This document shows, piece after piece, positions 52,754 to 54,710 of a stretch of DNA of 64,000 nt. Source of the stretch: Heterodontus francisci (taxonomy: Eukaryota). Where the stretch lies: the NCBI RefSeq assembly GCF_036365525.1, contig NC_090374.1:53206532-53270531 (forward strand), read 5' to 3'. Position numbers and translations under genes: made by a program. Within the stretch, counting starts at the first letter, position 1. Each line of letters opens with the position of its first letter. Under the pieces are notes generated by a model. It was not told where the DNA came from, did no database searches, and was given only the letters and a program-made list of their open reading frames with translations.

Positions 52754-54139
52754 ATGGAAAAATCCATTTCATTACCAGAAAACTTCGAGCGAGCGGCGGG
52801 GCCCAACCAGGCCAAAGCATGGCCGAGATGCATTTGCAGATTTGACAGGTGCTGTTCCGCATCAGGTTTAACAGTACGATGGGACAAAGAACAGGTCAGT
52901 GTTTTGCTTTACGCCATGGGAGACAAGACTACCCTGGGGTCGACGATCCAGTGAGGTGATTAAAGCGTTAGGAGGTTACTTTCAGATCAAGAAAAATATA
53001 ATCATGGAGCGAGCTAAAATCAACAGGTGCACTCAGAAAATCAGTGAAAGTATCGATTTGTTTATTACTGACCTGTATAGAGTAGTGGAGGATTGCGGCT
53101 ATGAGAGGAACTGATTTGGGACAGAATAGTAGTCAGGGTTATAGATGAAGTGCTGTTAGACCAGCTTCAGTTGAAAGAAGATTTGACTTTGATAAAAACT
53201 ATTTTATTGAGCAGGCAGGCAGAAGTACGAAAGGGTAATCGACTACTAGATCGGGGGAGTCCAGCCTTGGAAATTCTGGAATTAGTCAGGTCCATTGAGA
53301 AAACAGAGAGAAATGGTGCCAGAAAGCTCAAGAGGCGGGAGAGATGCCCACAGGCAGGAACTGAATTGCAAAAGGTGTGGCCGGGAGCAGCACCAGCGGG
53401 AAAATTGCCCAGCCCGGGAAGCTGAATGTTTCTGGTGCAAGGGAAAAGGGCACTTTCAGCATGTCAGTCACAGCAGAAAACCAATGCTGCAGAGTGGAAA
53501 AAAGATAGATAAATAAAGGAGGGTCAAACAATTAATACTCCCTTCTGTTGCAAGTTGTATTATTATTAATAGTGTCTTCATTAGTGTTTCAGGGACGATC
53601 CGGAGAAAGTCTCAGGCTCAAGTAAAGGTTAACTCAGACTGTTTATTATTTACATTATACTATATAGACACTCCTCAAGCCACTTAAGCTAGCATCTGCT
53701 GTGCTGCTCCTACTTCTTCTTCTCCAGCCTATCTCATGTGACTTACAGTGGGGAGGGTCTCTCTCAATGTCTTCTCTATTAACCCTTTACCTCATTATAC
53801 TACACTTTCCTCGAAGTACAGGGGGAAAAAAACAAAGCTTGCTGGGAAGCAGAAATTCTAGTGGGAGGAAATAAAACTATTTTCAAATTAGATACAAGAG
53901 AAGCGGATTCTATCCTATCTGATCAAACACCTTGGCTGAGGAAAGAAAGGCTTAGGAAAATCAACAAAAAAAATTATACAGGCCAGGAGGGATTGAGCTG
54001 AAGGTTCTGGGAGAAATACAGACAACCTTAATACACAGAAACAACACAATCCTGGAAACCCTATATATCGTTAGGAACCAAGCCTGTTTGCTCCTTAGTA
54101 AAATAAAAAGCGTGCCTAGCCTTAAAGATGTTACACAGG
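52754..54139 (+). pseudogene. gag plus aspartic protease, frameshifted
   Basis: AWPR..RF....SGL, QVSVLLYAMG, KKNIIMERAK, twin knuckles CKRCGREQHQRENC / CFWCKGKGHF, protease FKLDT. Confidence 0.88.
53546..53804 (-). mobile_element. Solo LTR inserted antisense between gag and protease
   Basis: TG...CA ends, TSD ccttc/ctttc, AATAAA on -; begins tgtagtataatg on -. Confidence 0.8.
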
Positions 54140-54710
54140 GTGGAAGCAGATTGACCCGGAAAACTCTTCATTGGTGGTCTGAAAACTGAAACAAATGAAG
54201 AGGTACTTGAAGCAGTGTTTGGCAAATATGGAAGAATAGTAAAAGTCCTGCTGTTGACAGATCGTGAAAAAAAATAAGTCGAGGGGGGTTTGCTTTTATT
54301 ACCTTCATAAGTCCTGGAGATGCAAGATATGCAGCCAGGATATGAATGGGAAGCCTTTGGACTGAAAACCCATTAAAGTAGAAATTAGACCAGCATTTGA
54401 AAATTGTAGATGACATAGACCACCTTCACCCCCAAGAAGCCGTGGTCCTCCTTGGAGGATTCGAGGAGGAATGGGAGGTGCGCCCCAAGAAAGTGGGCAC
54501 AGTGAATGGATTCAGGAGAAAGTACAGTGCTACTTTAAGAGGAATGTACCACCACCTAAAATGCCCCTTCCTTCGAGGGCAACACGAAGTGAAGAAATGG
54601 GGGGGGAGCCAGGAAGAGGAGGTGGCTCAAGAGGACCTCCCTCACGTGAAAGGGACTGCTATGGTTCGCCTCCATCTCACGAAGAGATGATACCATCCAA
54701 AAGAATTGAT
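54140..54710 (+). pseudogene. RBMX: Processed RBMX (hnRNP G) copy: RRM plus Pro/RGG region
   Basis: [74 protein letters not shown]...PPRSRGPP...SRERDCYGSPP; no introns; stops and homopolymer frameshifts. Confidence 0.92.

Follow-up and report, generated by a model that had tools for sequence, protein, structure and literature searches.

A spliced host RBMX segment behind the protease of a Ty3/Gypsy element family in Heterodontus francisci, with signs of selection on its RRM

Results

The element in the window

The window analysed here, a stretch of 64,000 nucleotides from Heterodontus francisci (NCBI RefSeq assembly GCF_036365525.1, contig NC_090374.1, positions 53,206,532 to 53,270,531 of the forward strand), holds at 52473-55174 one decayed, non-autonomous LTR element of the Ty3/Gypsy type. 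Between its two LTRs lie, in this order, gag, protease, a spliced segment of the host gene RBMX and an integrase tail (Table 1). We take the primer-binding site to be of the tRNA-Leu type. The first LTR bases of the window copy are mutated, TG...CA ends being seen in the autonomous relatives. The match of the protease to Pfam RVP, obtained with a sister copy, is weak (E 0.014, under the cut-off). The stop at 54152 and the frameshifts in the RRM region are private to the window copy, while the RG/proline-rich region carries the 18- and 102-base in-frame deletions of the family.

Table 1. Features of the chimeric element in the window
Feature	Positions	Strand	Remarks
Left target-site duplication	52468..52472	+	5 bases, of which 4 agree with the right duplication
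5' LTR	52473..52686	+	about 213 bases; divergence from the 3' LTR 13%
Primer-binding site	52687..52698	+	TGG start, directly 3' of the LTR
Decayed gag	52690..53545	+	two CCHC-type knuckles at about 53360-53460; collinear with autonomous copies
267-base insert	53546..53812	.	private; solo LTR of another family
Decayed aspartic protease	53813..54139	+	private frameshift near 54100
5' junction	54139..54146	+	8-base microhomology common to host RBMX mRNA and the autonomous element
Captured RBMX RRM region	54140..54400	+	host codons 2 to about 90, spliced over host introns
Captured RBMX RG/proline-rich region	54401..54710	+	to about host codon 230; Pfam RBM1CTR E 6e-4
Integrase gene tail of autonomous element	54711..54945	+	
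Polypurine tract	54954..54961	+	
3' LTR	54962..55174	+	213 bases
Right target-site duplication	55175..55179	+	one mismatch against the left one

The private solo LTR sits between gag and protease, and its matches in the genome occur in pairs 4.5-6 kb apart (among the 40 scored of 1,955 first-look candidates). Dispersed repeats are abundant in the remainder of the window. Reverse transcriptase remnants (Pfam RVT_1), probably from LINEs, were found at 9751-10506, 15818-16366, 25234-27945, 34072-35442 and 41271-41807, a tRNA-like sequence that is probably a SINE head lies within a dispersed repeat at 15051-15123, and a degenerate tandem repeat occupies 4680-4975.

The host parent of the captured segment

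The sequence 3' of the fusion point had been read as RBMX in the first-pass annotation, and we confirm this assignment: its best PDB matches are to the hnRNP G RRM (E 6e-16), and an intron-containing host gene was located by searching the species' own genome with Pfam RBM1CTR. This gene lies on the minus strand at G000:C15:3466121-3458022 and has nine coding exons with GT-AG ends that encode 416 residues. Contigs from public runs join two of the host exon pairs, confirming splicing, and codons 2-90 are 97-99% identical to six named cartilaginous-fish RBMX proteins. The element follows the host exons one after another without introns, and is identical to the host from the third base of the start codon onwards; an intronless segment of host mRNA is thereby paired with an intron-containing parent.

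The host gene also has a 105-base alternative exon (L041, G000:C15:3462308-3462204), which is skipped in a deep contig of run X1 and included in runs X10 and X18. Among the seven proteins compared, it is present in Mustelus only. The element captured the RBMX form in which this exon is included.

The junction between protease and RBMX

The bases on which the annotation of the fusion was built are present at 54119-54163 (AGG at 54137-54139, GTG GAA GCA GAT at 54140-54151 and TGA at 54152-54154) and give the peptide ALKMLHRVEAD*PGK. On the host side the breakpoint falls at RBMX codon 2, as had been proposed, and on the helper side it falls in the linker between protease and reverse transcriptase (RT). 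The proposed in-frame fusion does not hold for the window copy itself, where, owing to a private frameshift in an A-run near 54100, no more than about ten codons ahead of the junction are in the RBMX frame, but it does hold for the family, being found in 81 of the 86 copies that span the junction. The suggestion that microhomology guided the fusion was correct and even understated: instead of the five bases GTGGA, eight bases (GGTGGAAG, 54139-54146) are shared by the host mRNA and the autonomous relatives in the same frame, all eight being intact in 15 of 38 autonomous rows. An additional 5-base match between host and helper exists at the junction, offset by one base.

Two further details of the earlier reading need revision. 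The TGA was thought to be a CpG decay of CGA, but host codon 6 is CGT, which is not one step away; in 67 copies this codon reads CAT 25 times, CGT 19 times, TGT nine times and TGA once, in the window copy only. Similarly, a terminal RV(E/N) was considered typical of sequences behind proteases of this type. This fails for the relatives, where R is found in 55, V in 29 and E or N in 34 of 118 aligned proteins, although the family's own helper does carry R-V-E.

If the switch point were random, eight identical bases would be found there with a chance of about 1 in 4,000, but words of this length are common overall. When the host coding sequence was compared with the helper ORFs, 35 of the 137 shared 8-mers (26%) were in frame. 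As the microhomology fixes both the position and the frame of the junction, neither proves selection, and we rejected frame and precision as a proof of it, given that chance alone puts about a quarter of such shared words in frame. The idea that a precise in-frame capture hints at selection therefore survives in one part only: selection on the RRM is supported, by the substitution pattern described below, and not by the precision or frame of the junction.

In 118 of 120 relatives the breakpoint lies behind a conserved motif at the protease end and ahead of a gap-rich linker leading to the RT start motif, so the protease was left whole. Cleavage by the protease near the junction is plausible from this arrangement. 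Within a given gag-protease background, letters specific to the chimera are confined to positions 11 and 5 bases upstream of the junction (about 54129 and 54135 in the window); both changes alter the last protease residues and could affect a cleavage site. Structure prediction of the natural protease-RRM stretch without an alignment was uninformative (mean pLDDT 41) and was not used.

The autonomous helper

A genome search with the protease end returned many copies that run on into reverse transcriptase. Natural helper ORFs contain RVT_1, RT_RNaseH_2, Integrase_H2C2 and rve in the order of Ty3/Gypsy elements and in one frame with zinc knuckles and protease, forming a single gag-pol of about 1,300 residues with two CCHC arrays followed by PR-RT-RNase H-integrase. 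The helpers are 4.4-5.7 kb long, have only gag-pol between their LTRs and show the hallmarks of Ty3/Gypsy elements, namely LTRs with TG...CA ends, primer-binding site, polypurine tract and target duplication.

Their closest named relatives are K02A2.6-like single-ORF Gag-Pol proteins of sea urchins, which are 57-59% identical over protease-RT. We take the K02A2.6-like label to denote Mag. The single gag-pol frame, the two CCHC arrays and the domain order all resemble Mag/SURL-type Ty3/Gypsy elements, a likeness that is based on the K02A2.6-like matches and not on named reference elements. Two CCHC arrays in the nucleocapsid are described for Mag in part of a previous report (PMC2577118). They are present in natural copies here and 56 of 120 relatives fit the two-array pattern, which is not decisive for Mag, since Micropia/Mdg3 have them too. 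None of the Mag/SURL-type relatives listed carries an RRM annotation, unlike the chimeric family.

Copies, trimming and history of the chimeric family

A search with the junction pattern gave 64 matches against none in the reversed control, which excludes chance as their source; the helper pattern gave 137 matches and likewise none in the control. At least four of the 64 junction matches (L100, L177, L180 and L184) have no RBMX behind them and may be truncated copies or helper variants. We count at least 89 distinct chimeric copies, which is a lower bound; a first-look screen had given 416 candidates, 40 of which were scored. Rows dropped along the way were L049, L188 as a near-duplicate of L008, and seven of 33 fetched stretches that had no RRM; L008 and L188, both on C26, are 0.4% apart and probably reflect a segmental duplication or an assembly duplicate. 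Both LTRs could be placed in 33 chimeric copies; inspected by eye, eight of these show perfect 5-base target duplications and six show one mismatch, indicating separate integrations. The two LTRs of a copy are on average 12-15% different.

The expectation of a single gag-protease-RBMX frame was borne out at the level of the family, as no frameshift or stop common to the copies was seen between gag and RRM; shared lesions before the RRM, the test that had been set beforehand against such a frame, were not found among the copies. Individually, none of the 89 copies retains an unbroken frame from gag to RRM, and private indels in the RBMX part are frameshifting in 137 cases and in frame in 35.

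The first capture ran much further than the RRM and was trimmed later, with only the RRM staying constrained, a point absent from the earlier annotation. One copy, L044 (G000:C13:27.70 Mb), continues through RBMX as far as the stop codon, followed by some 100 bases of 3' UTR, and only then returns to the integrase gene. It is the only copy found to reach this far; it has a later LINE insertion and lacks one internal stretch between two similar repeats. Another, L198 (C10:79.49 Mb), retains the 18- and 102-base segments, whose deletion joints are present in 69 and 76 of the 89 copies, respectively. Both L198 and L178 (C5:26.25 Mb) are without the S73P and K86R changes described below, and may be relics of the earliest form or re-captures. 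In the remaining copies RBMX ends at about host codon 230 and joins the integrase tail, mostly out of frame. We rejected an in-frame fusion of RBMX with the integrase tail as a general feature, as most copies stop about ten codons past the 3' junction; an in-frame join is limited to some later variants, which include L004, L007, L009 and L014, as well as L003 and L036. L123 has a 3' junction of its own. That both internal deletions are in frame proves little, because 58-60% of the short repeats within the host coding sequence are in frame as well.

A short match is found at the 3' switch of the full-length copy, where it is imperfect, and at the later trimming, as at the 5' point. These features place the family beside the products of LTR-mediated retroposition, in which, according to the parts of Tan et al. 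2016 (PMC5131818) considered here, spliced host mRNA replaces internal ORFs between LTRs, often in frame, with microsimilarity of a median of 6 bases at the switch points and with further non-autonomous movement. The family shares with these retrocopies the intronless segment, the replacement of ORFs between both LTRs and the microsimilarity, which amounts to 8 exact bases at the 5' point. Hallmarks of L1-type retroposition are absent: RBMX runs straight into the integrase tail, the 5-base duplications flank the LTRs and there is no poly-A tail. We consider it very probable that host RBMX was captured by a template switch.

Probable exchange of gag-protease with the helper

A tree built from gag-protease (89 rows) has the form of a ladder in which chimeric copies alternate with autonomous ones, and a single clade of chimeras was not found (14 of 103 rows were left out for short cover, and the root, placed on one distant copy, is unreliable). 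Within a background, net divergence between chimera and helper gag-protease is close to zero, whereas silent divergence between backgrounds is 0.23-0.29. Repeated recombination between co-packaged RNAs would be the simplest reading of this pattern. Given such recombination with helpers, the chimera cannot be taken as the source of any constraint on gag-protease.

Between subfamilies, silent divergence is 0.23-0.29 in gag and protease, compared with 0.04-0.05 in RBMX and 0.03-0.06 in the tail and LTR. This fivefold excess of gag-protease over the captured cassette counts against the explanation that we favour.

Probable selection on the RRM

Subfamilies were scored on 75 gag-protease columns that separate two autonomous groups and are independent of RBMX, yielding 15 early and 40 late copies; 30 intermediate copies were left out of the main contrast and included in the robustness test, and three of the 89 copies had no gag-protease score. 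The RRM was bounded by the Pfam codons 10-80, with values for codons 2-90 also given; a bound of 7-80, chosen after seeing the data, was not relied on.

Between early and late copies, RRM codons 10-80 gave a net dN of 0.0012 and a dS of 0.051, a ratio of 0.02 (95% -0.02 to 0.09), and codons 2-90 a net ratio of 0.11, whereas downstream codons 91-226 gave 1.07. In site counts, amino-acid to silent changes were 0:5 for codons 10-80 and 2:6 for codons 2-90, against 15:3 downstream (Fisher p 0.002 and 0.008); a second hit in the same codon accounts for one of these 15. The dN/dS check, asked for at the outset on the branch from host to consensus and made here between subfamilies, places the RRM far from a ratio of 1, albeit on few sites: the signal comes from 5-6 silent sites, and the contrast is weaker when codons 81-90 are counted. 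It held at each of five group thresholds and after removal of CpG codons, and in 200 label shuffles dS never exceeded 0.011. Counts of host against copies without subfamilies (3 amino-acid to 6 silent changes at a level of at least 50%) were set aside, as change in the host lineage inflates silent counts; codons 26 and 129 changed in the host and not in the element.

Changes confined to single copies have a dN/dS of 1.09 in the RRM, indicating that decay after insertion was neutral. This value and the lack of any unbroken gag-to-RRM frame among the 89 copies do not fit a domesticated retrogene. Between host species, conservation of the downstream part of RBMX is 83-100%, but in the element this part is neutral. 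Shared RBMX changes build up stepwise along the gag-protease score, the low-score group having the host letters, and every late amino-acid change departs, where aligned, from a residue conserved in other fishes; because these residues are invariant in six cartilaginous fishes and the coelacanth, the direction is from early to late. At the six silent sites (host coding positions 21, 111, 150, 165, 168 and 199), host and early copies carry the same letter and late copies depart from it, a direction read from the host and the copies only.

The pattern could arise with no selection in the element if template switches had repeatedly renewed the RRM from host mRNA, or through chance given so few sites, but we find this improbable. 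Recombination is indeed frequent in the family, L198, which lacks both deletions and most shared changes, could be a re-capture, and the states of the silent sites are known from host and copies alone. Refreshing would, however, pull late copies towards the host, while it is the early copies that carry the host letter and the late ones that depart. Moreover, silent changes accumulate stepwise alongside element-specific changes downstream, silent divergence of the RRM (0.05) equals that of the downstream part, the integrase tail and the LTR (0.03-0.06), and S73P is element-specific and occurs in both early and late groups. Against chance alone, binomial p values are 0.0005-0.002.

The same freely drifting silent sites bear on a use at the RNA level, in which the captured sequence would give rise to small RNAs against host RBMX. 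The capture of host fragments as an anti-silencing device has a precedent in Drosophila telomeric elements, as described in part of PMC13534243, but such a use predicts equal constraint on silent and amino-acid sites, and we regard it as very improbable here. Taken together, we consider it probable that selection acted on the RRM at the protein level. Such purifying selection along the replicating lineage would imply that the fusion was translated and that the integrity of the RRM mattered to its carrier.

Several shared changes fall in or beside the RRM and count against this view. S73P (70 of 84 copies) and K86R (69 of 82) spread early; E82Q is found in 24 of about 36 late copies, and T85I also rises in late copies. 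The residues that contact RNA in the human structure include K9, F11, R49, F51, F53, K80 and P87, as given in the relevant part of PMC4041419, and none of these shows a shared change among copies. The side chain of residue 82 contacts RNA in the same structure (PMC4041419).

It is also conceivable, if unlikely, that the RRM was a tolerated passenger, i.e. a useless domain that had to stay folded within the Gag-protease fusion, as it would otherwise cause degradation or spoiled particles, in an open frame that may also have shielded the RNA from decay. This would account for constraint being confined to the only folded domain while the disordered region was released, for the in-frame deletions and for late copies having tolerated E82Q and T85I. 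Such a burden could, however, be shed through a stop right after the protease, and none is common to the 89 copies. Furthermore, maintenance of a fold usually needs a less strict constraint than zero of about 18 changes, and zero amino-acid changes were seen against about 18 expected from the 5 silent ones, tighter than folding usually needs, although the counts are small.

Discussion

We propose that the RT, RNase H and integrase genes gave way to RBMX at the 8-base match, and that the RRM was then translated and selected for packaging of the element's own RNA, an account to which, as a whole, we assign a probability of roughly 0.6. In this scenario host RBMX mRNA would have been co-packaged, and the reverse transcriptase would have switched onto it and then back, leaving spliced RBMX in frame behind the protease in the place of the three genes. 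The hybrid would have moved using the RT and integrase of the autonomous family while swapping gag-protease with its helper, and internal deletions would have trimmed the captured RBMX. The Gag-protease-RRM protein could then have given its own RNA an edge, possibly after cleavage in the linker.

Taken by itself, capture or packaging of RNA as the selected role of the RRM is tentative and falls a little short of even odds. A Gag-linked RRM would hold the chimeric RNA during particle formation with helper Gag-Pol, and a benefit in cis fits best. The human RBMX RRM prefers AA motifs, as stated in part of PMC4041419. The sense strand of the element is 34% A, which together with this preference is only suggestive.

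An action of the RRM outside the particle, on splicing, export or stability of the element RNA or as a decoy of host RBMX without its effector regions, seems to us a distant prospect. Human RBMX uses its C-terminal regions, and can dispense with the RRM, when it represses proviral transcription of HIV-1, according to part of PMC7175097, and the family dropped these C-terminal regions while retaining the RRM. A benefit in trans would, on the other hand, go to helpers and RRM-mutant copies as well and weaken selection on the carrier. Returning to packaging, a more detailed version is possible and somewhat more doubtful than the role alone: the polymerase would have been replaced by the host RRM, which as a protease-released or Gag-tethered RNA clamp would have beaten the helper in packaging; the family would have persisted over the whole of the helper's recorded history by recombination, with the last subfamily retuning the binding face through E82Q and T85I.

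The mechanism of capture is known; the new part is the amplified and probably selected Gag-protease-RRM fusion. In contrast to the retrocopies of Tan et al. 2016, as far as these are described in the parts considered, the present family has at least 89 copies, a subfamily ladder, repeated exchange with its helper and purifying selection restricted to one domain. In the full-text literature, a scope that leaves out Repbase/Dfam and subscription journals, in which the family may be catalogued, we found no LTR element described as carrying RBMX or an RRM, nor any such amplified and selected fusion. Protease-RRM fusion proteins were likewise absent from the 24, the 99 and the best 150 matches in protein databases, where decayed copies are rarely annotated.

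Some known systems share parts of this arrangement, as judged from sections of the respective reports. In defective retroviruses of the gag-onc kind, among them MC29 gag-myc and Abelson gag-abl (PMC13431497), replication genes were also traded for host coding sequence, with a Gag fusion and dependence on a helper. Those are exogenous retroviruses selected via cell growth, whereas the chimeric family is an env-less germline retrotransposon with a whole protease and a host RNA-binding domain; neither a Retroviridae backbone nor an env-bearing helper was found here. Maize Bs1 (PMC13317346) is an LTR element with transduced segments of host genes and a translated chimeric ORF, but it is a plant element with fragments of three genes, whose benefit is discussed for the host and not as an RNA-binding part of the element. 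Active Drosophila telomeric retrotransposons (PMC13534243) also amplify captured host coding fragments to their own advantage; these are non-LTR elements with fragments of 140-235 bases that act through piRNAs, while the chimeric family carries a whole domain under constraint at the protein level.

On a practical matter, RBMX-like annotations in shark genomes may be copies of this element, which should serve as a warning. When LTR elements capture host mRNA, this is commonly regarded as accidental, with a few pseudogenes as the outcome, or as a source of material for the host. In this family, selection appears to have kept the captured domain because it served the spread of the element itself, the neutral control lying in the same cassette, and a host RNA-binding module would be a working part of a parasitic element. 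If this is true, the family would represent a natural parasite of a parasite, armed with a stolen host RNA-binding domain. The fossil series of full-length capture, trimming and subfamily steps would illustrate how a non-autonomous element gains a protein part, and the competition between helper and element for packaging would become testable.
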